Of a stretch of DNA of 64,000 nucleotides, positions 23,302 to 43,873 are shown one piece after another (positions within the stretch are counted from its first letter, which is position 1; the number at the start of each line of letters is the position of its first letter). The notes under the pieces are model-generated. The model saw nothing but the letters and a program-made list of their open reading frames with translations. It was not told the DNA's origin and made no database searches. Source of the DNA: Alphaproteobacteria bacterium (GTDB lineage Bacteria > Pseudomonadota > Alphaproteobacteria > MPNO01). The stretch covers positions 1,664,001 to 1,728,000 of the forward strand of contig OZ219866.1 in assembly GCA_964291675.2 (NCBI GenBank). The letters run 5' to 3'. Made by a program: the position numbers and the translations under genes.

Positions 23302-23457
23302 CCGGGACCACGCGGGACCCGCCCGGTGGCGCGGTGGCGCCGGGACCGGTCGGCGTACCGAAACCTCACTTGTGAGCTTGGCACAGATATATCATTAGTG
23401 ATATGCATCGCCGACCGGTTTGCGATGTCGATGGCGATATGAAGCGTGTAGCTTAGG

Positions 23458-24864: not shown

Positions 24865-24968
24865 AGCGGAGCCCGAAATTCCCGCATCCGCCGGAGGGCC
24901 CGGACCGGCGGCGCCTGCGAGACTGCGCGGATCGCGCCCGTTGCGCCTGTCGGACGACAGGACCCGAG

Positions 24969-26243
24969 CTAACAGCCGAGACCCCGAGACATTTGGGCAT
25001 AGCTGGTGAGAGGGACCCCGCACATCCGATCCCGGTCCGATTTGTCGATGACGGGCCGGCTCATCAGTTCGAACATTTCGTCGAACTTGCGGAGCGCGGC
25101 GCAGCCCACCGCCTCGGGGTCGGCCGCGCTGCGGTGTCGGGGCCAGACACGATCGCGGGCGTGGCGCCAGAATTCGCTGTCGTACACCGAGCCGCAGGAA
25201 TAGTGCCAACCGACGAACAGGCCGTAGCAGAGTACATTGTCGACGAGAAATCGATTGACCACCGGCGCGTCGCGCTCGAGGTGCTCGATTCGACGGTTGA
25301 GACGCGTGTTGAGGACCATCCCGATCTGCAGCTGGGCGGACACGATCGCGGTTGCTTCGAGCGGCTCCATGAAGGCCGCTGCGTTGCCGATGCGAGCCAC
25401 AGCACCGTCATATATCTGGCGATGCACGAAATTCGGAAACGGAATGACCGAACGTTGTTCGAATTCCGATACGCCCTCGCTGTCGAGGAACGCATCGAAG
25501 TCCAATTCGACGTCATCGAGGCGGGATATATTGCGGTTGAAGATGTACCCGTAGGATGTGTGAACCGTGAGCGGAATGACGAAAATCCAGCCGTGGGGTC
25601 GGGCAACCGCACGGGTATAGGTGTGTTCGAGCGCCGGCCCGTCCTGCCGTTCTCTCATTATTGAGGGACAGCGGCGGATGACGGCCGTATCGGTCGGGAT
25701 GAAAGAAATATCGATATGCCGGTCGGGATCGGGTCTTCCGGGAAATCCCCTGGCATCGAAGACCAGATCGTAATGTTCCGGCGTCCGGCCCTCCAATTCC
25801 ACCAGCGCGCCGCCCTCCACTCGGGTGATATTGAGCACTTTCGCGTCGATGCGGCGTGCGCGCGTGCACTCGCGCAGCAGGGCTTCCATCAGATCGGCGG
25901 ACAGGTGGTAGGCGTAAGAAACGTGTTGCGGCGTGAAGTAGTGGGTGAAGTCCCGAGTGCGTCGGCCCCATCCCTCGAACGCAACACCGTATTTGCGCGT
26001 TCCGTTCAAGCGTTGCTGGACGGTTTCATGGGGCAGATCCGTCAGCTGCTGCAATTGCCGGACCAGGCTCGGCCAACTCCCTTCGCCCACCCCGATGACC
26101 GGAATGCGCGAGTCGTAGATGTGGTGCAGCTCGTGGTCGCTGTCCGGGTGAAGCCGGCTTACGCTGGCGGCCGCCAGGGATCCCGCGGTGCCTCGCCCGA
26201 CGACCGCGATCTTCCGTAGCGATTCACTGCCCGGCTGTATCAT
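24969..26243 (-). CDS. Flavin-dependent tryptophan halogenase family; probable peptidyl-Trp brominase (SrpI-like)
   Basis: GRGTAG, IGVGEGS, TRKYG (catalytic Lys), GWIFVIP (WxWxIP variant), FMEPLEATAI; in a cluster whose precursor ends in Trp. Confidence 0.88.
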   Translation of the reverse strand: MIQPGSESLRKIAVVGRGTAGSLAAASVSRLHPDSDHELHHIYDSRIPVIGVGEGSWPSLVRQLQQLTDLPHETVQQRLNGTRKYGVAFEGWGRRTRDFTHYFTPQHVSYAYHLSADLMEALLRECTRARRIDAKVLNITRVEGGALVELEGRTPEHYDLVFDARGFPGRPDPDRHIDISFIPTDTAVIRRCPSIMRERQDGPALEHTYTRAVARPHGWIFVIPLTVHTSYGYIFNRNISRLDDVELDFDAFLDSEGVSEFEQRSVIPFPNFVHRQIYDGAVARIGNAAAFMEPLEATAIVSAQLQIGMVLNTRLNRRIEHLERDAPVVNRFLVDNVLCYGLFVGWHYSCGSVYDSEFWRHARDRVWPRHRSAADPEAVGCAALRKFDEMFELMSRPVIDKSDRDRMCGVPLTSYAQMSRGLGC

Positions 26244-26393
26244 GCCACATGACTCCCGCCGGGACGGTCCGTCATCCCGCGCTGGAACGCCCATGTACAC
26301 CGTGGACGCAACAGGCTACCACATCGCCGGCGCCGTCGCCCGTTCTCACCGCGCCGACAGCCTGTCCCGGCGAGGTCGGCCGGCGAAGCTCCG

Positions 26394-27756: not shown

Positions 27757-28008
27757 ATGAGAAGTGGCGATGAGATGCTGCAACAGATTGTTGAGAAATC
27801 CGCCATGGACGCGGGTTTCAGGCAACAGCTTCTCGAAGACCCCAAGACTACCATCAGCGAAGAATTGGGCATCACCATTCCCGATTCGATGACCATCAAG
27901 GTCCATGAGAGCGACATGCAGACGGTGCATCTCGCCTTGCCGCCGGATCCGAACATCACCGAGGAGCAGCTCGAAGCCATCTCGGCCGGTCTTTGCTGCT
28001 GCTGGTAA
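27757..28008 (+). CDS. Proteusin/NHLP-family RiPP precursor, 78-aa leader plus core LCCCW (SrpE-like)
   Basis: DAGFRQQLLEDPK, KVHE, HLALPP, ITEEQLEAISAG double-glycine-type site, then LCCCW*; strong RBS. Confidence 0.95.
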   Translation: MRSGDEMLQQIVEKSAMDAGFRQQLLEDPKTTISEELGITIPDSMTIKVHESDMQTVHLALPPDPNITEEQLEAISAGLCCCW

Positions 28009-28139: not shown

Positions 28140-29258
28140 TTACTGGGGGACCGCTCCGGAGAGCACCATGAACACGTAGGCCTTGGCTCTTCGGAGCCGA
28201 TTTTCGGAGATCACCAGTTTGATGTGGTGGATGCCCCGTAGCAGTACATAGCGCCCGGACTTCGCAAACAGCGTCGTCGGTTTTGCGACCCAGTCGGCAA
28301 GCGCCGTGAGCTTCTGCGGAACGACAAATTCCTCATGGCTCATCGCTTCCAAGAGCGGATCCCAATCGGTCGGGCCGTCGAGCCAATAGCGTGGATCTTT
28401 CGTGTATCTCTGCTTGACGATGAATGTAAGGCCCAGCGTCGGGCCCACCCCGTCTTCGCGCACGTCAATGTTCGCTCCGGTCCTGACAATATTCACGCGT
28501 TTCCTGAATCGTTCGATTACCGAGTGGACGGCCGAGATCTGGCCCGGCCAGCCCGTATCTTCGAGATATGAACATATGTCCTTCCGCGATTTGAAGCCCA
28601 TGACGGCCAGGCGGATCGCTCGCGAGCGAGAGGGGAATACGCCGAACGAATCCATGCGGGTATCTTCCGGCTGAGCCAGGTAAACCCTTTCGACGTTCTG
28701 CCGCTCGGCAGGGGTCGTCTCCCAGCCCACGCAGGCAAGGAGCGCGTCGACCACCATCGCCGCATCGGTCTCCTGACGGCGGGCGCCGACAATCGCGCGT
28801 TCCCCGGGCCGCAGGAACATCGCCGGAAGGGAAATTTCATCCTGCCGCGCAGAGCCGATGTCGTATTCCAGCATCAACTTGCGGCCGACGATGTCACGCA
28901 GGGGCGAAACTTCGGTGTCCATCCGTTCGAACAGCCGCACGATCGCTTTCGCGGTCTCATCGGTCCGGTCGGTCCGCGCGCGTTCCTCAAAAAACGTCGC
29001 CGTCCTGGTTCCGCTCGCCAGCGAGGCCCCGAAATCCGCCTCCGGACTGCGCGCGTGCAGCGGCAGTTCGAAGCCGAACGGAAGAGCGCCCATCGTGATC
29101 GGAAGTCTTCCGGCGCATTCGAGCACCCGCTGCCATTCCGGATCTCCGATGAGGTTTGGTGAAATCCTGTTGCGAAAGTGCCCGAGCAGGTCGCCCATGG
29201 TGCCGCCTTCTTCGGCCAGGCGGTCCTGGGTGAGCGTGATTGCCTTGTCGATGTCCAT
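28140..29258 (-). CDS. Hypothetical RiPP tailoring protein; candidate ABBA-like prenyltransferase
   Basis: 372 aa, soluble, directly downstream of YcaO; FGFELPL..EADF, LMLEYD, HHIKL..AKAY motifs; function is inference. Confidence 0.5.
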   Translation of the reverse strand: MDIDKAITLTQDRLAEEGGTMGDLLGHFRNRISPNLIGDPEWQRVLECAGRLPITMGALPFGFELPLHARSPEADFGASLASGTRTATFFEERARTDRTDETAKAIVRLFERMDTEVSPLRDIVGRKLMLEYDIGSARQDEISLPAMFLRPGERAIVGARRQETDAAMVVDALLACVGWETTPAERQNVERVYLAQPEDTRMDSFGVFPSRSRAIRLAVMGFKSRKDICSYLEDTGWPGQISAVHSVIERFRKRVNIVRTGANIDVREDGVGPTLGLTFIVKQRYTKDPRYWLDGPTDWDPLLEAMSHEEFVVPQKLTALADWVAKPTTLFAKSGRYVLLRGIHHIKLVISENRLRRAKAYVFMVLSGAVPQ

Positions 29259-29267
29259 ATTCCCCCC

Positions 29268-31586
29268 TCACGCCACGACGGGTGCGGGATTGAGGTCGGC
29301 TTCGGCGAGAGGACGCTTGCGCCGGCCCATGCCGACGGGCACGTCGTACAGGCGCCCGGGCGCGAATCTCGCCCAAAAATGGCGCATGCCCGGCACGATC
29401 ACCCGCGCCACGGGCATGCCGATATCGGGCCGGGTCTGATCCAGCACCAGGAACTCCATGCCCCTGGCTTCGACGAGCGCGCGGCAGGTCTCCACGTCTT
29501 CCCGCGTGTCCGTCGACTCGATCACCGGATACTGCGAAGCCTTGCCGGGCGGGCTGTCTTCGGCCGGCGCCAGCCATGGGCATTCGGCGAGACGAGCGGT
29601 GTTCCACCACCAGAGCGCCAGCGGATCGTCGATCATCGGTCGGCCGTCGCCCCTCGCGGGACGTGGCAACCAGGTGAGGCACTGGTTCAATTCGCAGATC
29701 GCCCGCAGGGCCGCTATGCGCGGGTCGGCGTGGGCCCCGGCGCCGTAGATGATGTCCTCGGTTTCGGCGTTCGGTCGGCGCGAGAGCGCCACGAATGTCG
29801 GGATGCCGATGTCTGAGGTTGCATCCAGCATCCACAGGTCCCGTTCGCGCCGGGCGTAGTACTCCGGCGCCGATCCGAGGTACTCGTCGTCGAAACCGGG
29901 AAGATCGACCGCCGGGAGCCGCAGCCGGTTGTACCACCAGATGGCGAACGCATCGCGTTCCGCCAGCTCGTAGAAGCCTTGCAGGATGGCTTCTTCCAAC
30001 GTGTTGCCCGCCGCGCAGCCATTGGAGTCGGCGATCAGGTCGGTAGGGCCGCGCAGCTCGCCGGGCATGCTGTACAGCATCGACGTCGGCAGATAGCGAT
30101 GCCGCTGCTGCGTCAGCGACCACACCGGCGTCCAGTCGATTTCGGCGTCCGGGTCGAAACGCCGCGGCACGACATTGTAGGGGTGGCCTCTCGCGTTGAT
30201 GCTCTTCGCGTTGTCGAGCTGACGGTCGCTGAACAGCTGCGCGTCGTTCGGATGGATGGCCTCGTCCCCGACGGCGAGCTCGACGAACCGCTTGCGGATG
30301 CGGATCTCGTCTCCGTGGCGAGCGCCGGAATGGCGCTCCACCGCCTCGCAGAGCGCGCTGACCCTGGATTGCTCCGATGTGCTGCCCTTGCCGGCGCTGT
30401 TGCTGCGCAGGCTGCGCCTGAGCGAGCTCAGGCTCCGGCTTCTGGCACCGAGATTGCTTCCGGCCCAATGGACGTGCAGCCAGGCGTCGGTCTCGTCCGT
30501 GGTGCGCGTGAGCCAGGTTACGACACCGCTGACCGGGCTCACCAAATGGCGGTATTTGGCCAGGGTGACTTCCGGCGCAACCGAGCGCGCGCCGCCGCTG
30601 TTGCGATGGGTCTTGGGGCTCGTTTCAAGCCTCAACGGAACCGGCGCTCGATCCGGCCGATGCAACGCTTCGTCGCCACAGGCAAGGCATTGCGGCCGGC
30701 GCATAACCCGATGATGCGACGTCGCGAATGTGCCGGTATTCATCGCGATCGCGTGCTCGTGAATCGCGGCCGCCTCTTCCAGCACCAGCCACTTGACGAT
30801 CTCCGCCGCGATCAGCCCGTACAGCGCGTCCAGCAATGCGGGCTGAGACGCGAACGGCCTGAAGGCGGCCTCCTCGCCGGCAAGGTTGCGCAGAAAACCG
30901 TGGACTTCCTGATGGCTGCGCAGGCGGTGCGCCAGGCAGTCCCAGCAAGGCCCCCGATCGCCCGCGCGAAAGATCGGGCCGAACAACGACTCCATGCCGC
31001 GCGGCCGCACCAGCGTCCATGGCACTCTCGTCTCGATCCGGCGCCGGTTCTCGTCCGCGAGGCGCGCTTCGAGGTAATCTTCGCAGACGATGACCGTGAG
31101 TTCGGGACCGGCAGCCGCCACGCTGGCGCCGCTGTCCGCCAGATGCCGGGACAGGCTTCCGTCGTCGCCCTCGACCGCCACGCGCGCTTCCGCCAGACGT
31201 CGTTCGACCCAGCGCGGCGATGCACCGAGCGACGACCAGTAGGCCGCCCGGCATCGGTCCATGCCATGATCGGCCGAGACGACGTAGCCCTTGGCCGAGA
31301 GCGCAGCGATGGCGGCGAGAACATCGGCCGCGGGATGGGCGTCCTGGAGGGAAGCGACGATCTCGTCCAGCCTGTGCCGACCGTCGAGCAGCGGCAGCAG
31401 ATCACGATTCAGCGCTCCGTGGAGCAGGGTGTTGAACGATTCGGAGACCAGAAGGGTCTGCTGTTCGCCGATATCGTGCACTTGAAAATGGGGGACCAGG
31501 GCGGGAAGCTGGACGAGGCCCTGGTCCTCCGGGGTCGCTTTGGTCAATATCCCCGGTCGGGGAGTCCGGGCGGTTTGAGTCGTCAT
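29268..31586 (-). CDS. Fused leader-binding/E1-like-YcaO cyclodehydratase (TOMM C-D fusion; SrpC-like)
   Basis: GPCWDCL, RRPQCLACG, LVSPVSGVV, SAGKG, CEAVER, SNGCAAG, ELAERDA, C-terminal LNPAPVVA. Confidence 0.93.
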   Translation of the reverse strand: MTTQTARTPRPGILTKATPEDQGLVQLPALVPHFQVHDIGEQQTLLVSESFNTLLHGALNRDLLPLLDGRHRLDEIVASLQDAHPAADVLAAIAALSAKGYVVSADHGMDRCRAAYWSSLGASPRWVERRLAEARVAVEGDDGSLSRHLADSGASVAAAGPELTVIVCEDYLEARLADENRRRIETRVPWTLVRPRGMESLFGPIFRAGDRGPCWDCLAHRLRSHQEVHGFLRNLAGEEAAFRPFASQPALLDALYGLIAAEIVKWLVLEEAAAIHEHAIAMNTGTFATSHHRVMRRPQCLACGDEALHRPDRAPVPLRLETSPKTHRNSGGARSVAPEVTLAKYRHLVSPVSGVVTWLTRTTDETDAWLHVHWAGSNLGARSRSLSSLRRSLRSNSAGKGSTSEQSRVSALCEAVERHSGARHGDEIRIRKRFVELAVGDEAIHPNDAQLFSDRQLDNAKSINARGHPYNVVPRRFDPDAEIDWTPVWSLTQQRHRYLPTSMLYSMPGELRGPTDLIADSNGCAAGNTLEEAILQGFYELAERDAFAIWWYNRLRLPAVDLPGFDDEYLGSAPEYYARRERDLWMLDATSDIGIPTFVALSRRPNAETEDIIYGAGAHADPRIAALRAICELNQCLTWLPRPARGDGRPMIDDPLALWWWNTARLAECPWLAPAEDSPPGKASQYPVIESTDTREDVETCRALVEARGMEFLVLDQTRPDIGMPVARVIVPGMRHFWARFAPGRLYDVPVGMGRRKRPLAEADLNPAPVVA

Positions 31587-31618: not shown

Positions 31619-34015
31619 TCAGCCGCGCGAAGGCAGCGCATCGACATGGGCGGCGGCGCGGGCCGCGGTCTCGGCGACCGCCGATTTGAGCGCATCGAAA
31701 TTCTCGTGTCCGCAAGCGTTCGCGACGAGGGATTTCACCTTCGGTCTTGCCGCGGTCGCATCAAATCCTTCCTCACCGGCGAGGCGCGTGACGCCCTGCA
31801 AGTCCCGCCACATGGCCGCGGCTTCCGCCAGCGGCGCGGCACCGGCGGCCTCGAACACCGCCGCGGCGGTCGGAGCCGGATCGTCGAGGTCGGGACCGGC
31901 ACTCGTCAGCTGCAGGAAGCGCGCGGCCCTCTCGACCTCTTCCAGCCCGCCGCGCATGCGGGCATAGGCGAACACGCCCGTTTCGACGGGATCCGGCAGT
32001 GGCTGGCGCAGCCGGGCGATCAAAGACGCGTCCGCGCCGCATTCGGCCAGGGCTTCGCGCCGCCCTTCGTCGAAGCGGCGGCCGATTTCGGATTCGCCGC
32101 ATTCGAACACGCAGCGCGCCCTGGCGAGGAGGGGAATTTCGCCGGGGCCGGAGTCCCCGCAATGCCCGGCCAGCCCGGAAAGCGGCAGCGCGAGCAGAGA
32201 GCCCGAGCCCGCCGGGATCGCGGAGAACAGAAGACTGTCCCGCGCCAGGTCGGTCAGGATCTCGCGGAACCGTCGACAGAGGCGTTCGTTCTCGCTGGAC
32301 CGACCGCCGTCATGGACAAACAGCATATTGACCGGAATGCCCGGATAGGCTTCCCGGCTGGCGAGATCGGCGAGGACGATGGCGGCGATCCCGCCCCCGC
32401 GGAGCGGCCCCGCCCGGTCGACGAAATCCGCGACCACGGCGCCAAGCACGGTCGAGATCGAGGCATCGGCAAGGTTGGACAGCGCGACCCGCGCCTCGGC
32501 CGGCGACAGGTTTCCCCGCACGACATGCATGCCGATCTGAAACGCCTTGTCGTTCGACCAGTTTCGCACGATTTCGGCGGTATCCTTCGCATGCGCCGCC
32601 GGCAGCTCGGCGATCTGGCCCTTCATCTCCTCGACGCCCAGCTCGCGCGTCCAGTAGAGCCTCGCAAGCCCCCGCCGCGCCAGGTTTTCGGATTCCGGGT
32701 CCGGGCCGAACCCCTTCGGCAGGTCGAGATCGGTGAATTCCCGGTCCTGCAGGTTGTCGAGAAGCTCGGGGTGGCGCTCGATCCAACTTGCCAGCCGGGG
32801 GGCGGCCCCGAAGATTTCGACTATGGCCTCGAAGGCGTCCGGCCGCGCCGCGGAAATGGGACTGTCATACGCGCTCCAGTCATCGATCTCCGGGTAGTGG
32901 TGCGCGCGCCATCGGTCGACCAGCGGGTCCATCTTCTCGAACCAGCGCTTCGGCCGCAGCACGATGTTCATCATGTCGGCGTAGGTCCCCGGCAACACGG
33001 GCGATTCATCGGCGCTGCCGACCTGGAGCAGCGGATAGTGCCGGGAAGCCACCGCATGATGATCCGCATGGCGCTGCATGTTGAAGAACATCCAGTTGCT
33101 GAACTTCCAGTCGGCGCTCCAGGAATGGCGTGGCATCACCTTTTCCCAGCGCCCGTTCGGCAGGCGGATCCGACGCAGACCGTAGTGTTGAAAGTAGTTG
33201 CTGATCTTCATCGAAAAGACGCAGCACAGGCCGAGCACGGCAAACACCGGCACTGCCCAGATCCCGCTCATCCAGAACACCAGCCCGTACCAGAACCCGA
33301 CCGCGATGCCGTATCGCCAGAACGGATTGCTGTAATGCCACATCGGCAGGCGCCGCCGGGCCAGCCGTTCGCCGACGACCTTCCAGGAATTGGTGATGTT
33401 GCTGACGATTTCACGCGGGAAATACCGCCAGAAACTCTCTCCCTTGGGAGCGGATCCCACATCATGCGGCGTGCCGACCCGGGCATGGTGGATATAGACA
33501 TGCTCAGTCGCGTATTGCGGATAGGAGGCGGAGGCGAGAAGGAACTCGCCCAGCCGGCTTTCCCAGCCGGAGCGTCGGTGAATCAATTCGTGACCGACCA
33601 CGAATACGGCCTGTGCTTCCATGGTCAGTATGATCGCCAGGAGCACGCTCTCCCAGAGCGCCAACTGGTCTGCGACGAGGATTTGCCACAAGCCGAATAT
33701 CAGCGTGGGTGGCCAGAGGAAGGCCCAGATCCAGACAGGCAGGTTATGCCAGAACAGGCGGCGTTCCGGCGTCTTTACCGGATCCATATTGCGTCCGTCG
33801 GCACCCAGCGCCCGGTCGAGCGGTCCCGCGACACTCATATAAACGAACGGCGGCAACAACCACCAGCCGCCATAGATCGCGGCGAGGAGGATCAAAGGGA
33901 AAATCCCCAATGGCAGATAATGCGGAAGGGCGTTGAGGATCGACGGCTCTACGTGCTGCGCGCTGTCGGCCTTACTCGAGCCCAGGCCGCCGTCTACGGC
34001 TGCATCTTGCGGCAT
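31619..34015 (-). CDS. AlkB/desaturase-type membrane diiron enzyme fused to a degenerate GlnE adenylyltransferase-like domain
   Basis: HELIH, EHVYIHH, NYFQHYGL, QRHADHHA His boxes; C-terminal half parallels GlnE (FGAAPRLASWIERHPELLD, AFQIGMHVVRG, ALSNLADA, GGLEEVERAARFLQL). Confidence 0.8.
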   Translation of the reverse strand: MPQDAAVDGGLGSSKADSAQHVEPSILNALPHYLPLGIFPLILLAAIYGGWWLLPPFVYMSVAGPLDRALGADGRNMDPVKTPERRLFWHNLPVWIWAFLWPPTLIFGLWQILVADQLALWESVLLAIILTMEAQAVFVVGHELIHRRSGWESRLGEFLLASASYPQYATEHVYIHHARVGTPHDVGSAPKGESFWRYFPREIVSNITNSWKVVGERLARRRLPMWHYSNPFWRYGIAVGFWYGLVFWMSGIWAVPVFAVLGLCCVFSMKISNYFQHYGLRRIRLPNGRWEKVMPRHSWSADWKFSNWMFFNMQRHADHHAVASRHYPLLQVGSADESPVLPGTYADMMNIVLRPKRWFEKMDPLVDRWRAHHYPEIDDWSAYDSPISAARPDAFEAIVEIFGAAPRLASWIERHPELLDNLQDREFTDLDLPKGFGPDPESENLARRGLARLYWTRELGVEEMKGQIAELPAAHAKDTAEIVRNWSNDKAFQIGMHVVRGNLSPAEARVALSNLADASISTVLGAVVADFVDRAGPLRGGGIAAIVLADLASREAYPGIPVNMLFVHDGGRSSENERLCRRFREILTDLARDSLLFSAIPAGSGSLLALPLSGLAGHCGDSGPGEIPLLARARCVFECGESEIGRRFDEGRREALAECGADASLIARLRQPLPDPVETGVFAYARMRGGLEEVERAARFLQLTSAGPDLDDPAPTAAAVFEAAGAAPLAEAAAMWRDLQGVTRLAGEEGFDATAARPKVKSLVANACGHENFDALKSAVAETAARAAAHVDALPSRG

Positions 34016-34091: not shown

Positions 34092-35393
34092 TCAGCCCTG
34101 TAGCACTTCGGCGAGACGTTCCAGAGCCTCGATACAAAACGCAGTGGTCACGGCTTCGGAGCCGTGCCCTATCTGCCCTACCGTACCCCACTTTAGGGAC
34201 TGGTCGCCAAAGGCGAGTAGCTCCGGCCAGCTACCGTCCTCGCGTTGCGAGTTCCTGAACCTGTCCACTTGGCGCTTCGCGTCGATCCTTTCAAGGCCTC
34301 CGACACCGTAGAGCGCCGACACTGCCTGGGCGGTGTGCAGGATATTGCCGAATTCTCCCGTCTCGTCGCGCAGGCCCAAGATACGATCCGAGAGTATCGG
34401 GCGAAGGCCGGCAAGGGCGGGCGGTGCACGCATCATGGCACGGGAGACTGCGTAGTAGATCGCGACCGGGTCGGGATACCATTTGGACGAGCCCCCAACC
34501 CGGCCTCCGGCGACCATAGCCTCCAACCATCGTTGGGCGCGTTCGGTTTCGGGGCGGTCGCCGAGATAGGCGATGACATTGGCATTGACGACGGGGTCGG
34601 CCTCGATACGAAAGCGCGAAACGATATCGGGCTCGTCTTCCGCCAGAATCCAGGTCATGAAACGACCTTCCCCGTCGCGGCTCGACAATATTGGCGGAAC
34701 GTTCCTTCCCAGCAAAATCCAGGGATGGGCCCCGGTGACCAGCGAACAAAGGGCGGTGCTGTCAAGATCCTGGGGCAAATGGCGATAGTACCGCCACAAT
34801 CCGGGATATTCGATGGTGTCGACGAGATACGCCCTGGAGGCGGCGCATATCTCCCTGGCACGCGCCTCGCCGCTGCTTTCCAGGGCAAGTACGCAAAGAG
34901 CCGAAACAAAGGGAGGTCTCTCGTAATGCCGCGGGATGTCCGGATCGGCGGTGTTGAACCGGATGCAATGCCAGGCGCCGTTTTCGTCGATTGTCGATTC
35001 CAGGAAATCGAGGCCGCGGCGGATGCTCTCCCTGGCCGCTCTTGCCAGCGCATCGGCGGCGGCAGCGTTCTCCCGGTCTCTCGCCGGTTGGGGAGCAGGG
35101 GGACGGAGGGGCGGGGCGGGATCGTATAGCGTCTTACGCAGGAATTCGAGCGATGTTGCGCCGGTCTTCGCCGCCTCCCGTTCGGCTTCGCTAAACTTGC
35201 TGCGCGGCGGAAGCACCACATGCGTCGCGGTATAGGTGTCTTCGTGTACGTGGATCTCGTGGCCCTCCGCCAGGGTCATGCCGAATTCCCTTTCGATCGT
35301 CTCCCTGGGATTGGCGAGAAGACGTGCGCGAAAGTCACTGTCTTCGCCGGCTCGCGAGGCGAGGAATTCTGTCGCGTCAACCGGTTCCTTCAT
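34092..35393 (-). CDS. NHLP leader-like domain fused to a monodomain class II terpene cyclase-like alpha-barrel
   Basis: N-terminus DSDFRARLLANPRETIEREFG..HVHED..HVVLPP; then RGLDFL, GLWRYY..PQDLDSTA, DPVVNANVIAYLG, QW-repeat QREDGSW, GSEAVTTAFCIEAL. Confidence 0.75.
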   Translation of the reverse strand: MKEPVDATEFLASRAGEDSDFRARLLANPRETIEREFGMTLAEGHEIHVHEDTYTATHVVLPPRSKFSEAEREAAKTGATSLEFLRKTLYDPAPPLRPPAPQPARDRENAAAADALARAARESIRRGLDFLESTIDENGAWHCIRFNTADPDIPRHYERPPFVSALCVLALESSGEARAREICAASRAYLVDTIEYPGLWRYYRHLPQDLDSTALCSLVTGAHPWILLGRNVPPILSSRDGEGRFMTWILAEDEPDIVSRFRIEADPVVNANVIAYLGDRPETERAQRWLEAMVAGGRVGGSSKWYPDPVAIYYAVSRAMMRAPPALAGLRPILSDRILGLRDETGEFGNILHTAQAVSALYGVGGLERIDAKRQVDRFRNSQREDGSWPELLAFGDQSLKWGTVGQIGHGSEAVTTAFCIEALERLAEVLQG

Positions 35394-35499: not shown

Positions 35500-38445
35500 T
35501 CAGGCGACCTGCCTCTTGACCAGCTCCTTGAACACCCCGTCGACCTCCATGAGTTCGTTGAAGGAGCCGCTCTGTACGACTTTCCCCGCCTGCAGCACGT
35601 AGATTCTATCGGCCTGTTCCAGCGTGGACAGGCGGTGGGCGATGATCACCCGGGTAGAGGTCAGGGCCGTGAGATTTTGCATTACCTTGGCCTGGCTTTC
35701 GTTGTCCAGCCAGTTGGTCGCCTCGTCGAACAGCATGATCCGCGGGCTGCCGATCACCGATCTGGCGATCGTGACGCGCTGACTCTCGCCCCCCGACAGG
35801 ACCGCCCCGCTGGTGCCGACCATGGTCATCATGCCCATGGGCATGCTCTTGATTTCGTTCTCGACCTCGGCGATGCGGACCGCCGTCCACACCTCCTCGG
35901 TCGTCACGTCGTCGCGGTGTCCGACCACATTGTCCCAGAGATCCTGGGGATGGAGTCCGACCGATTGCGGCACCACGCCGATCTGCCGGCGTAGCTGTTT
36001 CAGGTTCAGGTGTCGCAGATCGCGTCCGTCGTAATACACCGCGCCCGCAGTCGGCCTGTCGATCCCGAGCGCGAGCCGGAACAGGGTGCTCTTGCCGGCA
36101 CCCGACTCGCCGGCGATCGCGATGAATTCACCGGGACGGGCGCGCAGCGTGACATCGTCCAGAATCAACGGGCCGTCCGGGTCGTAGCGGAACGAAACGC
36201 GGTCGAACAGAATGTCGCCGCCCAGAAACCCGACCGGCTCTCCTTCGATCCCGGCGTCGGGGACGGCGGTCAGCAGCGGGCGCATCTGATCGAACGCCGG
36301 CAGCATGGCGGCGACGGTGCCGAACGACTCGCCGAGCCGGGCGATGGCGGTCTGGAAAGCGATGAAGACGGTGTAAACGACCAGAAAATCGCCCACCGGA
36401 ACGTTACGGTCGCCCGATCCCGCCACCGCGAACAGCAGAACCCCGCCCGCAAGAAAGGGGAGTGCGGCACCGAATGCGCGCGAATGTCCTTCGAGCGCGC
36501 CCAGCTCGATCTCCGCGCGTTTCTGTTCGCGATAATCCCGCGCCCAGATGGCGAATGCCGACCCTTCCGCGTTTTCCACGCGCAGCTTGGAGATGCCGCC
36601 CACGATCTGGAAAAGCTGGCCGGCCACGCGACGCGCTGCGCTGATCATCCGCCCGTGGGGTGAGATCTGCAGCAGGCCGAGGACCAGGGCGATCGACAGG
36701 GACGCCAGGCTGAAGGCGAGCGCGATGACCCCGAGGGTGGAATCGTAGAAGAAGATGACGCCGAAAACCGGAAGCAGAAAGACGACCGACAGCAGGCTGT
36801 CGGCGACGACTCCCTGCAAGCCGTCGCGAATATTCTGGAACGTCATTCCCGACATGGCCAGATCGCCGGCCGGATGGCGGTGCAGCGTGCTCGGCGGGAG
36901 GCGCATCAGGCGGTCCCAGAAGGCGGCTTCGACCCGCGACGCCGAGCGCCCCTCGAGCCGCATCATCGCCGTGCTCTGAAGCAGGTGGAGCAATGCGCCG
37001 AGCAGCCCGAACACCGCCACCCCCACCGCCACGGCATAGAGCGCTCCGGCATTTCCGCCCGCCGTTACCTGGTTCGCGACGAATCCGAGAGCGAGTGCCG
37101 GCAGCAGTTTGATCAGCCCGCCCGGAAGCCCCGCCATCACCAGCCGCGTCAGATCCGCCGCCGATCCGCGCAGGGCAACGCCCAGCAGGGCTGCCGGCGT
37201 CACGTTGCCCGACGGCAATGGCGGGTGGAACATCCAGGCTTCTTCTTCCAGCGCGGCGGCGCGATCCGCCGTGACCCGGGCACTGCGTTTGCCGACCGGT
37301 TCGAATTCCCGGTAGCGGCCGAACATTCCGGGCAGCAGCGCTACGGGCCGGCCATCTTCGGCCCGGAATCCCAGGAGCGCATTGCTGTCGCCGCGCCACC
37401 AGCTACCCTCGGCCTTGAAGCGGACGCGCCGGGCGCGAACGCCTGACGCATCGAGAATGTCGACCAGGCCGACGGGAGAATCGGAAGGCCCCGAGCGCGC
37501 CGGTATCTTGAAGTCGATACCTTCGTGGCGGCCGATGGCGTGCAGGGCGTCGGCCAGAGCCGTGTCTTCGATATCGGCATTCCGGTCGATCGGCAGGTCA
37601 TAGATGTTGACCAGCCGCTGCCGTGCTGCCCTTTCCGCCGTGCGGCGGCTGGCCGTGCGTGCGCGTTCGAGATTCGCATCGTCGACCGCCGCGAGCCGGC
37701 GGTTGAGGCGTTCCAAGGCGAAAGCAAGCGAGTGAAAGGAGGCAAGCACCCGCAGCAGCACGCCCTGCCGCGCCAGGGTCTCGGTTGTCTTGCCCGAAAG
37801 CCTCGCCCGGTCGAACAACGTGAGCCAGCTTGTGCGCGTCAGCGGTATGAAGGCTTCGTGGGGACGGCCCGCCTCGGCAAGCTCCGCCGGATCGACGATA
37901 TCCATGAACGCGCTTGCGCCCCGCGGCGGTTCGGACACCCATACCACACCGCGCCTTACGGATAGCGTACCGGCGGCCAGGGTTCGAACGCCACCGGGCT
38001 CGGCCAGCGTGGTCGGCCGCGGAAGACGGCTGGCAAAGCGCGAGAGCGTGTCGGTAATGGCGGTCAACCACGTATCGGTCTGTTCCGCCAGGTCTGCGGG
38101 ATCGACCTCCGACAGCAGGGATGCCGGCAGGCGTTTCAGCAGGGTGCCCGGCAAGCCCTTGGCGATCAGGCTGAGCGTGGTGTCTTCGCCATCCCCCCGT
38201 TCGTCCGGCGCGACACCCGGCAGCAACCAGCCCGACTCGCGCCGCAGCAGATGCTTCGGCGCCGCCTGCTCGACCCCGTCCTTGAATTCGACCATGAACA
38301 GATTGACGGCGCCCCGATCGATGAACCAGACACTATCCGGGTCGTCGAGGCGCAACGGCATATTGCCGGCGCAGGGCACGGATATGCCGGAGCGAGCTGC
38401 CAGTTCGGCTATGGTTGTGTATTCCGGCAACGTGTCCTGCTTCAA
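35500..38445 (-). CDS. NHLP bacteriocin export ABC transporter permease/ATPase subunit
   Basis: N-terminal LDDPDSVWFIDRGAVNLF domain, TM domain, GESGAGKST, LSGGESQR, LFDEAT. Confidence 0.92.
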   Translation of the reverse strand: MKQDTLPEYTTIAELAARSGISVPCAGNMPLRLDDPDSVWFIDRGAVNLFMVEFKDGVEQAAPKHLLRRESGWLLPGVAPDERGDGEDTTLSLIAKGLPGTLLKRLPASLLSEVDPADLAEQTDTWLTAITDTLSRFASRLPRPTTLAEPGGVRTLAAGTLSVRRGVVWVSEPPRGASAFMDIVDPAELAEAGRPHEAFIPLTRTSWLTLFDRARLSGKTTETLARQGVLLRVLASFHSLAFALERLNRRLAAVDDANLERARTASRRTAERAARQRLVNIYDLPIDRNADIEDTALADALHAIGRHEGIDFKIPARSGPSDSPVGLVDILDASGVRARRVRFKAEGSWWRGDSNALLGFRAEDGRPVALLPGMFGRYREFEPVGKRSARVTADRAAALEEEAWMFHPPLPSGNVTPAALLGVALRGSAADLTRLVMAGLPGGLIKLLPALALGFVANQVTAGGNAGALYAVAVGVAVFGLLGALLHLLQSTAMMRLEGRSASRVEAAFWDRLMRLPPSTLHRHPAGDLAMSGMTFQNIRDGLQGVVADSLLSVVFLLPVFGVIFFYDSTLGVIALAFSLASLSIALVLGLLQISPHGRMISAARRVAGQLFQIVGGISKLRVENAEGSAFAIWARDYREQKRAEIELGALEGHSRAFGAALPFLAGGVLLFAVAGSGDRNVPVGDFLVVYTVFIAFQTAIARLGESFGTVAAMLPAFDQMRPLLTAVPDAGIEGEPVGFLGGDILFDRVSFRYDPDGPLILDDVTLRARPGEFIAIAGESGAGKSTLFRLALGIDRPTAGAVYYDGRDLRHLNLKQLRRQIGVVPQSVGLHPQDLWDNVVGHRDDVTTEEVWTAVRIAEVENEIKSMPMGMMTMVGTSGAVLSGGESQRVTIARSVIGSPRIMLFDEATNWLDNESQAKVMQNLTALTSTRVIIAHRLSTLEQADRIYVLQAGKVVQSGSFNELMEVDGVFKELVKRQVA

Positions 38446-40652
38446 CCCGACTTGACCAGCTTGTAATAGGTGCCGTCGCGGTCAGCGATCAACTCGTCGT
38501 GTGTACCGCGCTGCACTTCCACGCCCTTGTCGAGCACGACGATCGCGTCACAATCCCGCACCGTGCTCAGCCGGTGGGCCACGATCAGGCAGGTGACGCC
38601 ACGGCGCCGCAAGGCATCGTCGACGTCCTCCTCCGTCGCGGCATCGAGGGCGCTGGTCGCCTCGTCCAGAATGAGCAACGTCGGATTGCCCACCAGCGCG
38701 CGGGCAATTTCCAGCCGCTGCCGCTGGCCGCCGCTGAAATTCACCCCGCCTTCCTCGACGCGGGTCGCATATCCGTGTGGCCGGAGCAGGACTTCGTCAT
38801 GGATCCTCGCATCTCGCGTCGCGGCGAAGATGGCTTCATCCGGAACGGCCGGGTTCCACAAGGTGATGTTGTCGCGCAGGGTCGCGGAAAACAGCACGAC
38901 GTCCTGATCCACCATGGAAATGGACTGCCGCAGCACTTCTTCGGGTATCTCTTCCCGCGGGTGGCCATCGAACAGGATTTCGCCCGACCACGGCCGATAG
39001 ACGCCCGAGATAAGACGCGCCAGGGTGGACTTGCCGGAACCGCTGGGACCGACCACGGCAACCCGCTCCCCCGGCTTGATCGCCAGGTTGAAGTCCTTGA
39101 TCAAAGGCGGCCGGCTCTTGTTGAAGCCGAAGGTGACGTCCCGCAGTTCGAGCTGGCCTGCAAGCTGGAGCCGGCCATTGAATGTGGGGATCGACTCCGA
39201 CTCGGGGTTTCGCCGGCCGAAATTCGGGTCTTCCGCGGTCTTCGAGATGTCCTGGAGCCGTTGCAGATCGGTTTCCAGCGCCTGGCGCTTGTCGGTGAAT
39301 TCGAGGAAGCGCCCGATGGGCGCCAGGAACATCTCGGCCAGAATATAGAAGCCGACCAGCGTTCCCAGCGTCATCTTCCCGGTCATCACCAGACTGCCCC
39401 CGACGCCCAAAATCGCGGCGGCGCGCAGCGCGGCGACCAGGCCCGGCAGGGCGGTATTGAGGGAGCCCAGCTCGGTATGGAGCTGGCGGGCGCGCAGCTC
39501 CCGTGCCTGCTGGCCGCTCCAGCGCGAGAAAAACCGGTCGTCCGATCCCGTCATGCGCAGGTTGTCGGCGTGATTCAACATCTGCATGCCGAGGCCGATC
39601 AGCAATCCCTGCTCGCGCCTCATCGCCTGGCTGCGTACAGCTCGCAGCGCGTTGAGGAAGTGGGCCAGTACCGCGTGCAGGAGGGCCAGCAAGACCACGA
39701 TCAGCGTGAGCAGGACGTCGTAAACCAACATCGCGACGAGCAGCACCGCACTCATAGCCATGTCGATAATGAGCACAAGGAACTGATCGGTCAGGGTCTT
39801 CGCGATTCTGTCGATCGACGAGACGCGATCCGTCAAATCGCCCGCCAGCCTGTGTTCGAAGAACTCGATCGGCAGCCGCAGCAACCGCGACATGCCGCGA
39901 CTGTAGCCGATCACCGAAATCCGCACCGAGAGCCGCTTCAGGAAACGGTGCTTTAGCAAGGACAGGATGTATACCAGAACGCCGCCGCCGAGCAGGGCCG
40001 CCACCAACCCGCCCCAGGGTCCATGGTTTTCCAGCACGTCGTCCACGAAAACACCGAGCGATACGGGGACGACAAGTGCCAGCAACGTCAACATTAGCCC
40101 GCAGGCGATTATCCCCGTAAGCACGCTCCAGGATCCGAACAGCAAGGTGCCCAACTGCCTGAACAGGTCGGGCGGATCGCCGCCGGGACTGAAATCGTCG
40201 CCGCGCGCGAACCGCAGGGCAATTCCGCTGTAGCTCTTGTTGAACTCTTCAGCGGAAATCCTGCGTCGGCCCGTGGCGGGATCGTTGAGATAGTAATTGC
40301 GGCCATCGAACCCTTCGAGCACGAGGAAATGGCTGAACTGCCAGAACAGGATCAGGGGCAGCTCCAGCTTCTTCAGTTGTTCGGCCCGTACGCTGAGGCC
40401 GCTGCATTGGAGACCGTAATGCCTGGAGGCGCGCAAGATGCTCGCGGCACTGCTGCCGTCGCGGCTCACCTCGCATTTGTCGCGCAGCTCGGTAAGCGGC
40501 ACCCAGCGACCGAAATAGGCCAAGACGCTGCCGAGGCAGGCGGCGCCGCATTCGGATGCGTGCATCTGCAACAGAAGCGGCGTGGTTATCCTTTGCTTCA
40601 GGGAGTCCGATGCAGCCTTGCCTCCAGCCCCCTCAGAGGCGCGCGGCGACAT
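38442..40652 (-). CDS. NHLP family export ABC transporter with C39 peptidase domain
   Basis: QMHASECGAACL (catalytic Cys), FSHFLVLEG, NDPA, GPSGSGKST, FSGGQRQR. Confidence 0.94.
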   Translation of the reverse strand: MSPRASEGAGGKAASDSLKQRITTPLLLQMHASECGAACLGSVLAYFGRWVPLTELRDKCEVSRDGSSAASILRASRHYGLQCSGLSVRAEQLKKLELPLILFWQFSHFLVLEGFDGRNYYLNDPATGRRRISAEEFNKSYSGIALRFARGDDFSPGGDPPDLFRQLGTLLFGSWSVLTGIIACGLMLTLLALVVPVSLGVFVDDVLENHGPWGGLVAALLGGGVLVYILSLLKHRFLKRLSVRISVIGYSRGMSRLLRLPIEFFEHRLAGDLTDRVSSIDRIAKTLTDQFLVLIIDMAMSAVLLVAMLVYDVLLTLIVVLLALLHAVLAHFLNALRAVRSQAMRREQGLLIGLGMQMLNHADNLRMTGSDDRFFSRWSGQQARELRARQLHTELGSLNTALPGLVAALRAAAILGVGGSLVMTGKMTLGTLVGFYILAEMFLAPIGRFLEFTDKRQALETDLQRLQDISKTAEDPNFGRRNPESESIPTFNGRLQLAGQLELRDVTFGFNKSRPPLIKDFNLAIKPGERVAVVGPSGSGKSTLARLISGVYRPWSGEILFDGHPREEIPEEVLRQSISMVDQDVVLFSATLRDNITLWNPAVPDEAIFAATRDARIHDEVLLRPHGYATRVEEGGVNFSGGQRQRLEIARALVGNPTLLILDEATSALDAATEEDVDDALRRRGVTCLIVAHRLSTVRDCDAIVVLDKGVEVQRGTHDELIADRDGTYYKLVKSG

Positions 40653-41482: not shown

Positions 41483-43873
41483 TCAGGGTGCTTGCGTGTC
41501 CCTGTCCGGAGAGCTCCGGTCCAGCGCCGTCAACAGCGCCGGCAGGAGAGACAGGTCGGCAATGAGGGCAAACGCAATGATCATCGCCGTCAGGATGCCA
41601 ACCTGCGCAGTGGGAACGAACGGAGAAAAAACCAGTATCAGGAAGCCGGCTACCAGCACGACCGTAGTCGTGAACAGCGCCCGACCGGCCATGTCGAAGG
41701 TGTGCCGCACCGCCTCTTCCCGGCCCAGCCCGTGTTCAAGTCGCGCGCGGCGGTACTTGCTGAGAAAATGGACAGTGTCGTCCACGACGATGCCCACTGT
41801 CATCGCCACCACGACAGATAGCGACAGGCTCACCTGTCCGACGGCCAGGCCCCAGACGCCGAGGCCCAGCACGGCGGGAACCAGATTGGGAACGATGCTT
41901 ATCAGGCCAAGCCGCAGCGATCGAAATGCGAACAGGAGAATGGCGGAAATGGCCAGCAGGACGACTGCCGTTCCCACCATCATGGCACGGATGTTGCGCT
42001 GCCCGATATAGGCGAACATCGCCGCCGGACCGGTGCTGTTGACACCGGCGACATGCGGCGCGTTTTCCCTTAGCCAGTCCGCCGCGCGCGCGTTCAGTTC
42101 GAGCACCTCTTTCGAGGAGAGGGTTTCCGCGGAAACCGACACTCGCGTCGCCGACCTGGATCTGTCGATTTGATTGTTCAGGTCCAGGCCCAGCGGAAGC
42201 GAGAGCTCGTAAAGCAACAAATATTGCGCCGCTAGCTCCTGGCTTTCCGGAATCCTGTAAGCGGCCGGGTCGTCGCCGTGCATGCTCTTGTTGAGTTGCC
42301 GGAAGGTGTCGGTGACGACCGCCACATGGCGTACAGGGGGTTGCTCGCGGTACCAGTCTGCGAAGTTCGCGACTTCGGCGAGGAAGCGGGGATCGGTGAC
42401 ACCGCCCTCGGCAGATGCGTACAGCGAGTATTCGAGGAGGGTGTTGCCGCTCAGGCGCTCGTCCATGAAATCCGTATCCTGGCGAAACTCGACGCTCTTG
42501 TCGAAGAAGTGAACCAGGACGTCATTTAGCTCGTTGCGCGGAATGGCCAGCATCATCGCAGCCACAATCACCAGCCATCCCCACAATAACGCCTTCCTGT
42601 AGCGCAGCACGGTATCCGCCACGACGCTCATCGCGGGGCCGCGGAGCCGTCGGTCGGGTGCGGCACGGACCGGAAGGAGCGAAAGCAGCGCCGGCAGAAA
42701 GGTGACGGAAAGAACGAAGGAGGCGACGATTCCGAGAGCGACGAAGTTTCCGAGATCGCGGTATGGCGGCACTTCGGAAAAGTTCATGCTCAAGAAGCCA
42801 AGCGTCGTCGTGAGGCTCGCAAGAAACACCGGATGCAGGTTGAGACTGACGGACTCCACGATGGCATCGTGCCTGGAAGCCCCGGCACGCAGACTCTGGC
42901 GCAAAGCCACCAGCAGGTGCACGCAGTTCGCGACGACGATCATCAGCACGATGGTCGGTGCCGGCGATACGGGCGGGGAAAAGGGCAGACCGACCCATAC
43001 GCCCAGGCCCACCGACGCGAGAATGGAAAGGACGATCACCATGCCGGTGCCCGCGACCCCCGCCCAGCTCCGGGTGAGAACGCCGAGGATCAGCGCCATG
43101 AGCAGCAGGCTTGCGGGCAGGAAGATCATCTGGCTGCCGATCGAGGCTTCCACGAATGTCTGGTTGACCATGACCGTGCCGACGACGCGAAGGTCCATGT
43201 CGGGAAACCGTTCTTCCGCCTGCGCGGCGACCGACCGGGCGAACTCCGCGACTTCGCCCACGGCTTCCAGCTGGCCCTCCTCCGGCAGTTCGACGGTGAC
43301 GTTCACAACGCTGACATCGCCGTTCAGGGCCAGAACGCTGCCGGCGATGCGCGGGTCCGACAAGGCGATGGCCCGGATTCGCGAGCGCGCTTCGGCGCGG
43401 GTCAGTTCTTGCGGATCGACGAGATCCCGCACATACAAATCGTCGCCGTCGGCGGTCGTGTGCTGGAAATTGGCGAGCGAATCGACACGCCTCGAATAGG
43501 GTGTCTTCCAGGCGGCGTCGGTCAGCCAGAGGGCGGCCGAGAGTGCCTTTTGCGAGGTTGCGTCACCATCGTCCGGAACGATCAGGAACGCGACATTTTC
43601 GTTCTTCCCGTAGGTGTTCTCCAGCGCCTCCAGGGCCAGAAGCTGCGGATTGTCCTCGTCGAAGAAGATGCGGTAGTTGCCGGAGAACTCCAGCATGGCG
43701 ATGCCGCTCGACGCGGCTGCGACCAGGACCAGCGTGGCAACGACGACCGGCCAGCGGAACCGCAGCACCCGTTCGGCGAATCGCGTGGCGAATTGCTGTC
43801 TTGCTATGCCGGGCTCGTCCACGGGATCGGTGCCACTAGTTACGAACTCCCTCGGGGGCGTGCGGTACGCCAT
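41483..43873 (-). CDS. MMPL/RND-family transporter
   Basis: Two repeats of TM, periplasmic loop and 5 TM segments; SLTTTLGFLS, GIVVDDTVHFL. Confidence 0.9.
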   Translation of the reverse strand: MAYRTPPREFVTSGTDPVDEPGIARQQFATRFAERVLRFRWPVVVATLVLVAAASSGIAMLEFSGNYRIFFDEDNPQLLALEALENTYGKNENVAFLIVPDDGDATSQKALSAALWLTDAAWKTPYSRRVDSLANFQHTTADGDDLYVRDLVDPQELTRAEARSRIRAIALSDPRIAGSVLALNGDVSVVNVTVELPEEGQLEAVGEVAEFARSVAAQAEERFPDMDLRVVGTVMVNQTFVEASIGSQMIFLPASLLLMALILGVLTRSWAGVAGTGMVIVLSILASVGLGVWVGLPFSPPVSPAPTIVLMIVVANCVHLLVALRQSLRAGASRHDAIVESVSLNLHPVFLASLTTTLGFLSMNFSEVPPYRDLGNFVALGIVASFVLSVTFLPALLSLLPVRAAPDRRLRGPAMSVVADTVLRYRKALLWGWLVIVAAMMLAIPRNELNDVLVHFFDKSVEFRQDTDFMDERLSGNTLLEYSLYASAEGGVTDPRFLAEVANFADWYREQPPVRHVAVVTDTFRQLNKSMHGDDPAAYRIPESQELAAQYLLLYELSLPLGLDLNNQIDRSRSATRVSVSAETLSSKEVLELNARAADWLRENAPHVAGVNSTGPAAMFAYIGQRNIRAMMVGTAVVLLAISAILLFAFRSLRLGLISIVPNLVPAVLGLGVWGLAVGQVSLSLSVVVAMTVGIVVDDTVHFLSKYRRARLEHGLGREEAVRHTFDMAGRALFTTTVVLVAGFLILVFSPFVPTAQVGILTAMIIAFALIADLSLLPALLTALDRSSPDRDTQAP

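Follow-up and report, generated by a model that had tools for sequence, protein, structure and literature searches.

An AlkB-type membrane oxygenase joined to a degenerate GlnE half in an srp peptide cluster

The gene at 31619..34015 on the minus strand of the window, a 64,000-nucleotide stretch of an Alphaproteobacteria bacterium genome (GCA_964291675.2, contig OZ219866.1, positions 1,664,001 to 1,728,000), encodes a 798-residue protein that joins an AlkB-type oxygenase to a degenerate half of the adenylyltransferase GlnE. The N-terminal half is an AlkB-family six-helix diiron oxygenase with the full set of nine histidine ligands. The C-terminal half is, by alignment, a copy of the GlnE adenylyltransferase (AT) half from which every nucleotidyltransferase catalytic block has been lost, and it is under purifying selection, strongest over its first 135 residues (amino acids (aa) 370-505). 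We propose, and put the chances at about even, that the gene is a conserved membrane oxidase of azoline clusters of the srp type (sponge-derived RiPP proteusin; RiPP, a peptide made on ribosomes and modified after translation), acting on a hydrophobic, probably prenylated azoline core and carrying a non-catalytic, GlnE-derived cytoplasmic module. The parts of the gene are:

31619..34015, minus strand: whole fusion gene, 798 aa; AlkB-type diiron membrane oxygenase plus degenerate GlnE adenylyltransferase half
32909..33880, minus strand: AlkB-like catalytic and membrane domain, aa 46-369 (phmmer; Foldseek against 8f6t)
33578..33592, minus strand: His box 1, HELIH, aa 142-146 (H142, H146); invariant in 13 fused homologues
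33485..33505, minus strand: His box 2, EHVYIHH, aa 171-177 (H172, H176, H177)
33179..33199, minus strand: NYFQHYG, aa 273-279; Gln276 at the position of the Fe2 ligand Glu271 of FtAlkB, H277 retained
33056..33073, minus strand: His box 3, RHADHH, aa 315-320 (H316, H319, H320)
32501..32908, minus strand: helical start of the GlnE-like half, aa 370-505; best conserved segment of the whole protein
32651-32731, minus strand: 27-aa insertion in the helical start, aa 429-455
32096..32500, minus strand: remnant of the nucleotidyltransferase core, aa 506-640; VDxRLRPxG block deleted
32351-32374, minus strand: LADLASRE in place of GKLGxRE, aa 548-555
32324-32338, minus strand: IPVNM in place of SDLDL, aa 560-564
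31622..32095, minus strand: C-terminal helical subdomain (GlnD_UR_UTase-like in GlnE), aa 641-798; least conserved

The AlkB-type half and its iron site

Comparison with the PDB by phmmer matches aa 46-369 to AlkB (8f6t_A, E = 2.5e-45; 8sbb_A, E = 4.2e-35), and Pfam FA_desaturase covers aa 120-342 (E = 2.4e-28). An AlphaFold2 model of the whole protein is folded, with two domains in a rigid arrangement (mean pLDDT 86.7, pTM 0.83). Foldseek searches with this model retrieve 8f6t (E = 4e-15, TM(target) 0.75), the GlnE domain structures 3k7d (E = 1.1e-8) and 1v4a (E = 2e-7), and DrrA (6yx5, E = 3e-3). The initial annotation, made from the letters of the window, had described all four AlkB-type His boxes with NYxEHYG changed to NYFQHYG, and each of these motifs could be located, at aa 142-146, 171-177, 273-279 and 315-320.

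In the AlkB–rubredoxin fusion FtAlkBG, the iron ligands given in the covered part of the structural report (PMC10113152) are nine histidines (H137, 141, 167, 171, 172, 272, 311, 314 and 315) and one glutamate. Measured against that ligand list, counterparts of all nine histidines are present (H142, 146, 172, 176, 177, 277, 316, 319 and 320), and they are invariant across 13 fused homologues. The same part of the report has Glu271 bound to Fe2, 3.2 Å from the substrate methyl. In the phmmer alignment with 8f6t_A the Q of NYFQHYG stands opposite the E of NYIEHYG, so that Gln276 takes the place of the sole carboxylate ligand of Fe2 and the AlkB carboxylate is absent. Gln occupies this position in 57 of 58 fused genes, L055 alone having Glu, and Glu occupies it in 22 of the 22 nearest unfused AlkB relatives and in three of 13 more distant fused representatives (P0141, P0177 and P0178). 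As far as these alignments go, the Glu-to-Gln replacement is a trait of the fused family. Two of the related loci hold, about 4 kb upstream of the fused gene, an extra unfused AlkB-like gene of 403-406 aa with a canonical NYLEHYG (L030:5368-6576 and L032:5089-6306).

With FtAlkBG (8f6t, 8sbb) the window protein shares the six-helix membrane fold, the nine His ligands and a C-terminal fusion partner that is cytoplasmic in FtAlkBG and, by analogy, would be so here. It differs in having Gln in place of Glu271 and a non-redox in place of a redox partner, and its gene lies in a RiPP cluster whereas the AlkB gene context is alkane catabolism. Of the six Arg in the rubredoxin-docking patch of FtAlkBG (covered part of PMC10113152), hand mapping of the alignment shows three retained as Arg (R148, R220 and R289) and one as Lys (K292), a further resemblance. 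The AlkB fusions listed in the covered part of a review (PMC8918992) are with rubredoxin and with ferredoxin-reductase/ferredoxin only. For enzymology, the fusion offers an AlkB-type site with a natural Gln in place of its sole carboxylate ligand, and a first non-redox fusion partner for AlkB.

The GlnE-derived half

By Pfam alone the GlnE assignment is marginal, with PF03710 scoring 23.9 bits against a 24-bit cut-off, 0.1 bit short. The NCBIfam GlnE profile NF010706 aligns aa 392-569 with its positions 576-728 of 986 (E = 4.2e-18), at a score far below its equivalog cut-off of 724 bits. A phmmer search of aa 380-798 against 1.84 billion representatives gives 479 matches at E <= 1e-3, among them full-length GlnEs aligned over the whole AT half; the nearest true GlnE (P0151, 1013 aa) is 36% identical (E = 1e-53, query 9-412 to 569-1003). 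A family profile search identifies the AT domain of E. coli GlnE (3k7d, E = 9.6e-26) and the adenylyl-removing (AR) domain (1v4a, E = 1.9e-16). The homology of aa ~380-798 to the AT half runs from the helical start through the nucleotidyltransferase core to the helical end. Profile, phmmer and Foldseek results thus agree with the initial annotation that the C-terminal ~400 residues follow GlnE, and its proviso that profile searches might fail to support this homology did not come to pass.

Alignment with 11 full-length GlnEs shows the blocks GKLGxRE...SDLDLxFxYD replaced by ADLASRE...IPVNMLFVHD in the fusion, and the third block, EGxLYxVDxRLRPxG, deleted. The earlier description of a change from MGKLGxRE...SDLDL to LADLASRE...IPVNM was right about the loss; the GlnE form is really (F/L/M)GKLG rather than MGKLG. 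The catalytic blocks are gone in all 11 AlkB-fused representatives aligned, and VDxRLRPxG is deleted or replaced in every aligned sequence fused to AlkB or to a pump of the resistance-nodulation-division (RND) type. Among the best 150 of the 479 phmmer matches, 15 of 15 proteins with four AlkB His boxes are without SD[LIV]D[LIV], and 23 GlnEs have two copies. P0170, a truncated true GlnE, carries the same intact GlnE motifs. Both the homology and the catalytic losses, which domain search and alignment with GlnE had been suggested to check, therefore hold, and with all of its catalytic blocks lost the C-terminal half should be unable to adenylylate. Two proteins grouped by length with the AlkB fusions were excluded by alignment, P0153 being an RND fragment and P0170 the truncated GlnE, so that the one apparent AlkB fusion with an intact motif falls away.

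GlnE proper consists of tandem AR and AT halves (about 950-1000 aa) with GKLG, SDLDL and VDxRLRP intact. The module shares full-length homology with the AT half (3k7d) over aa ~380-798 and differs in being one half only, with these blocks lost, attached to a membrane protein. A separate, intact GlnE of 1014 aa is encoded elsewhere in the genome, and the fused module is 26% identical to its AT half.

The dead half is nonetheless conserved, in a gradient along its length. Mean identity to the window protein over 48 loci, a set that includes two wrong-ORF (open reading frame) rows (L029 and L047, ~20% identity) and the partial L057, is 65% for the AlkB domain; along the GlnE-like half it goes from 68% (aa 370-505) through 46% (aa 506-640) to 43% (aa 641-798). 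The median Nei-Gojobori ratio of non-synonymous to synonymous divergence (dN/dS), taken over 119 pairs with 0.05 < dS < 1 and with L029, L047 and L057 left out, is 0.15 for the AlkB half and 0.16, 0.32 and 0.38 for the three successive segments of the GlnE-like half, the last of which reaches about 1.2 in single pairs. The estimate of dN/dS for the C-terminal domain that had been proposed as a check is therefore below 1 throughout. These results bear out the initial view of a catalytically dead pseudo-enzyme module retained on a membrane oxidase, in that a GlnE AT homologue without catalytic residues is kept by purifying selection; the scaffold, substrate-binding and nitrogen-sensing functions suggested with it are candidate roles. 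The same features, fold kept without catalytic residues and purifying selection, are shared with pseudoenzymes of the GlnE/DrrA AMP-transferase fold. A dead module of the GlnE type is not known to have been described on any membrane enzyme or pump.

Could the C-terminal half instead be a functionless relic of a chance fusion, now decaying? The missing catalytic residues would be expected of such a relic, as would the last subdomain, which is the fastest evolving and has been deleted in ten loci. Against this, aa 370-640 are kept in every fused locus examined under the constraint just described, the structure is confidently modelled, and the module is conserved down to 31-35% identity and re-used on RND pumps. 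We regard the relic explanation as highly improbable.

Two further observations concern the evolution of the gene. In L001 it is split by ~4.4 kb, with aa 508-583 on both sides (L001:11722-16172), which may reflect an insertion or an assembly artefact. Among the fusion genes of the window and of L001-L058, synonymous divergence between bins assigned to different phyla is often < 1, which fits the horizontal spread of srp clusters in the literature.

The srp cluster and the distribution of the fusion

The srp gene clusters were reportedly described by Nguyen et al. (J Am Chem Soc 2021). The window holds a nitrile hydratase leader peptide (NHLP) precursor with an LCCCW core, a YcaO and a Trp halogenase together, and is an srp cluster, an already known kind, as defined in the covered parts of PMC10286304 and bioRxiv 10.1101/2023.06.09.544420; the labels SrpC-type and SrpI-type are given by family rather than by comparison with published sequences. 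The neighbouring genes are:

27757..28008, plus strand: SrpE-type NHLP precursor, 83 aa, ending ...EEQLEAISAG|LCCCW; the LCCCW core of srp clusters
29268..31586, minus strand: YcaO cyclodehydratase with fused leader-binding domain (SrpC-type), from family matches
28140..29258, minus strand: 372-aa ORF with a predicted ABBA aromatic-prenyltransferase fold (AlphaFold2 and Foldseek)
34092..35393, minus strand: 433-aa protein with an NHLP-leader-like N terminus and a squalene-hopene-cyclase-like domain, directly upstream of the fusion; both matches below curated cut-offs
24969..26300, minus strand: flavin-dependent Trp halogenase (SrpI-type)
35500..40652, minus strand: NHLP-type ABC exporter pair (ABC2, 35500-38445; C39-peptidase ABC1, 38442-40652)
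41483..43873, minus strand: MMPL/RND-superfamily transporter
23395-25209, minus strand: 604-aa ORF overlapping the halogenase start; no family match

The cluster also contains a LolA-like protein. In the covered parts of PMC10286304, PMC10858898 and bioRxiv 10.1101/2023.06.09.544420 (below, the covered srp literature; the founding 2021 paper lies outside it), the characterised proteins are SrpE, SrpC and SrpI only, with the LCCCW core, the YcaO SrpC, which makes three thiazolines, and the Trp-6 brominase SrpI. The window shares with these clusters the LCCCW NHLP precursor, the SrpC-type YcaO, the SrpI-type halogenase and a spread over sponge-symbiont phyla. The YcaO gene lies directly downstream of the fusion gene, its probable ATG at 31586 being 32 nt past the fusion-gene stop.

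The fusion is far from a one-off. A word-indexed protein search gives 931 matches, of which the best 120 are all 784-813 aa long, 74-89% identical and aligned over 97-100% of the query, and come from metagenome-assembled genomes (MAGs) labelled Acidobacteria and Alpha-, Gamma- and Deltaproteobacteria. A scan for related loci, with one genome per species and the full-length alignment as query, returned 80 loci. In 57 of these the tblastn match runs into the GlnE-like half; such fused loci come from MAGs of sponge symbionts that belong to the Alpha- and Gammaproteobacteria, Nitrospira, Vicinamibacterales, Gemmatimonadetes, Longimicrobiales and other groups. Another 22 loci (L059-L080) are unfused AlkB-like genes of Rhodobacterales, 380-480 aa long and 36-44% identical. 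The possibility raised with the initial annotation, that related clusters would lack the GlnE-like half and leave a chance fusion or misassembly, is at odds with these 57 fused loci and with the 120 near-full-length relatives among the matches listed.

Neighbour counts, made over up to 10 kb on each side and less on short contigs, tie the fusion to the peptide cluster. YcaO is present in 47 of the 57 fused loci and is directly downstream on the same strand in 38; the 372-aa ORF is found in 39, the precursor and the C39-ABC in 38 each, the protein combining NHLP-leader-like and squalene-hopene-cyclase-like parts in 26 and the halogenase in 22. The survey of co-occurrence with LCCCW-type clusters that had been suggested thus finds the fusion conserved in them. 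The fusion gene is also linked to YcaO more often (47/57) than the brominase is to the fused loci (22/57). In how widely they occur and how strongly they are transcribed, srp clusters rank among the leading biosynthetic clusters of sponge microbiomes, according to the covered part of bioRxiv 10.1101/2023.06.09.544420, and the fusion is a conserved, uncharacterised core gene of this peptide-antibiotic-like cluster. Contigs from a metatranscriptomic library match 31771-32071 and 32214-32416 with one mismatch each, a hint of expression that shows the gene to be present in an RNA library but does not amount to proof of transcription.

The precursor cores found with the fusion are LCCCW, MCCCGI, LSCCL, LCCCT, LCCC, LSCCG, LCCCG(I/F), RCCC and RCCCCC. 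Their common poly-Cys character suggests that the shared target is what derives from Cys, or a group attached there, rather than Trp or Leu. The initial suggestion that the oxidase may hydroxylate or desaturate the isoprenoid or the Leu side chain is thus upheld in part: the adjacent gene at 28140-29258, with its predicted ABBA fold, lends indirect support to a hydrophobic or isoprenoid target, whereas Leu fails as a general one, core position 1 being variable (L, M or R). Some related clusters (L007, L011, L012 and L034; for example L012:18483-18734) have a second precursor with the core MCCCGI beside the LCCCW one, and others, with the cores RCCC, RCCCCC, LCCCG or LSCCL, are without the halogenase.

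The 372-aa ORF, conserved beside YcaO in those 39 loci, has no match in Pfam or NCBIfam. A language-model look-up points weakly to aromatic prenyltransferases, and among the Foldseek matches listed for its AlphaFold2 model (pLDDT 91.8) there are only ABBA prenyltransferases (6-DMATS, IptA, NphB, AmbP1, CloQ and PatF; E about 1e-5, TM 0.4-0.5). On this model we predict an ABBA-type prenyltransferase, and srp products may be prenylated; prenylation is not mentioned in the covered srp literature. In the 433-aa protein encoded directly upstream of the fusion, the first ~70 residues match TIGR03793 (E = 3.5e-11) and the remainder of the assignment comes from PF13243 (E = 3.4e-5), both below cut-off. 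An NHLP-leader-like domain on a protein of this size, that of an enzyme, is unusual.

Role of the fusion and of its module elsewhere

In the role that we propose, the dead half would lie in the cytoplasm beside the diiron site, by analogy with AlkB topology: the AlkB termini and diiron site face the cytoplasm, and the C-terminal fusion partner of FtAlkBG docks there (covered part of PMC10113152). The YcaO, the putative ABBA-type prenyltransferase and the leader-bound precursor would be at work in the same compartment. The AlkB half would take the modified core (X-thiazoline x3, with or without bromo-Trp, probably prenylated) from the membrane face and hydroxylate or desaturate an aliphatic or allylic C-H of it, after which the C39-ABC, MMPL and LolA-like machinery would export the peptide. 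In this scheme the GlnE-derived half would serve as a non-catalytic structural or docking module, neither electron carrier nor enzyme. A prenylated, heterocyclised pentapeptide is a plausible hydrophobic substrate for an AlkB-type enzyme and fits the MMPL and LolA-like exporters. The real natural product then probably carries an oxidation that is absent from heterologous work so far, and perhaps a prenyl group too.

Several observations weigh against this proposal. AlkB enzymes take their substrates from the bilayer, and a leader-bound peptide would be an unusual one. The assignment of the prenyltransferase rests on a moderate fold match (TM about 0.5). As to electron supply, the window's own genome (93.7% complete) has no match to rubredoxin PF00301, the electron-carrier family covered by the search, and the cluster has no redox partner. 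A natural short form of ~650-690 aa occurs in ten loci, lacking the last ~130-150 residues (aa ~650-798) and followed at once by YcaO, so the last helical subdomain is dispensable. YcaO was not found within the fetched sequence, up to 10 kb each side, in 10 of the 57 fused loci. The window's own genome encodes a second AlkB-GlnE-like paralogue (813 aa, 35% identity; G000:C2:686271-688712, equivalent to L084:10272-12713). Its neighbours are a penicillin amidase, two sulfotransferases and AcrB/HlyD, YcaO and an NHLP precursor both being absent, and the context of L058 is similar. Fused homologues without RiPP genes indicate that the family is not restricted to peptide tailoring.

These paralogues also bear on the possibility that the enzyme's substrate is a membrane lipid or a lipid co-substrate and not the peptide, for self-protection of the producer or to supply a lipid tail, the dead half serving to tether the enzyme to further proteins of the cluster. 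Its closest unfused relatives are the ordinary Rhodobacterales AlkB-like genes, the paralogues lie beside an acylase-type amidase, sulfotransferases and RND pumps, and the cluster contains MMPL and LolA-like exporters of lipid type, all of which would suit a lipid substrate. The tight operon linkage to YcaO, through the short gap seen here and direct adjacency at most fused loci, and co-inheritance with the precursor across phyla make such a substrate improbable.

That same linkage to YcaO would suit a different reaction, in which the AlkB half is the missing azoline oxidase, converting three thiazolines to thiazoles (-2 Da each) in place of a flavin (SagB/McbC-type) dehydrogenase, with the Glu-to-Gln change tuning the site to desaturase-like chemistry. 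The cluster ORFs that were scanned include no dehydrogenase of the nitroreductase type, the published SrpC products are described as thiazolines only (covered parts of PMC10286304 and PMC10858898), and CCC is the sole core feature that all fusion clusters share. Fatty-acid desaturases, moreover, belong to the same superfamily (Pfam FA_desaturase). The reaction is however without precedent and would require a polar peptide backbone position to gain access to a hydrophobic tunnel embedded in the membrane. Some fused paralogues have no YcaO at all, and heterologous expression is reported to yield azol(in)es in the absence of the fusion gene. We consider this function of the enzyme improbable.

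The degenerate GlnE module also occurs at the C terminus of AcrB-type RND pumps (P0166 and P0171, about 1520 aa), and also in RND-fused fragments (P0153, P0174 and P0192). A metagenome scan with P0166 alone as query found nothing, and with the RND-fusion alignment as query it found one locus, L089, in which the fusion (L089:10001-14575) lies in a plain HlyD-AcrB operon with no RiPP genes. AcrB adjoins the AlkB fusion in L039, L040, L041 and L045. That RND pumps in non-RiPP operons carry the dead module speaks against a function peculiar to the srp peptide, or one limited to binding the leader peptide.

AlkB-fused and RND-fused forms share the 27-aa insertion with the nearest GlnEs (P0151, P0191 and P0170), and typical GlnEs are without it. 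An unrooted maximum-likelihood tree has a 100/100 branch that separates all GlnEs from the AlkB- and RND-fused modules. This pattern fits a module that arose once, from a GlnE with the insertion, and was later recruited to two kinds of membrane protein. In protein evolution it is a clear case of half a regulatory enzyme that was inactivated and then put to new use on membrane proteins. Stand-alone matches of 409-456 aa (P0124, P0125 and others) nest within the AlkB-fused clade, and may be fragments or split genes.

The AT half of GlnE responds to glutamine and PII. The dead half might therefore be a regulatory sensor in which the GlnE allosteric sites (for glutamine, PII or PII-UMP) are kept and gate the oxidase, or elsewhere the RND pump, by nitrogen status. 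A module that is portable between AlkB-like proteins and AcrB-type pumps in ordinary HlyD-AcrB operons fits a general regulatory domain, as does the grouping of both kinds of fused module apart from all GlnEs. Conservation, however, peaks not in the core pocket but in the helical start that adjoins the AlkB domain, and the C-terminal helical subdomain has been lost in ten loci, so that we judge a sensor function quite improbable.

An extension of the proposed structural role, tentative and on balance unlikely, is that the dead GlnE half is a portable cytoplasmic adaptor, arisen once from an insertion-bearing GlnE and placed on RND pumps as well as on AlkB-like oxidases. Its part in srp clusters would be to organise a membrane assembly line, running from cytoplasmic YcaO and prenyltransferase through a lipidated azoline peptide to a diiron oxidase with a new, all-neutral Fe2 site and on to the exporter. 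If true, AlkB would gain a new, non-redox class of partner, and the pseudoenzymes a new family.

Literature searches for GlnE with AlkB or desaturase, for proteusin with fatty acid desaturase and YcaO, and for RiPP with AlkB or prenyl returned nothing relevant, and the covered srp literature contains no mention of a desaturase, alkane hydroxylase or adenylyltransferase. None of the papers searched, a set without the 2021 srp paper, shows the fusion architecture, the Gln iron ligand or the portable dead GlnE module.

Among the remaining genes of the window, the 604-aa ORF that overlaps the start of the halogenase has homologues of 48-67% identity adjoining the halogenase in about 15 related loci, and may be a further gene of the cluster.

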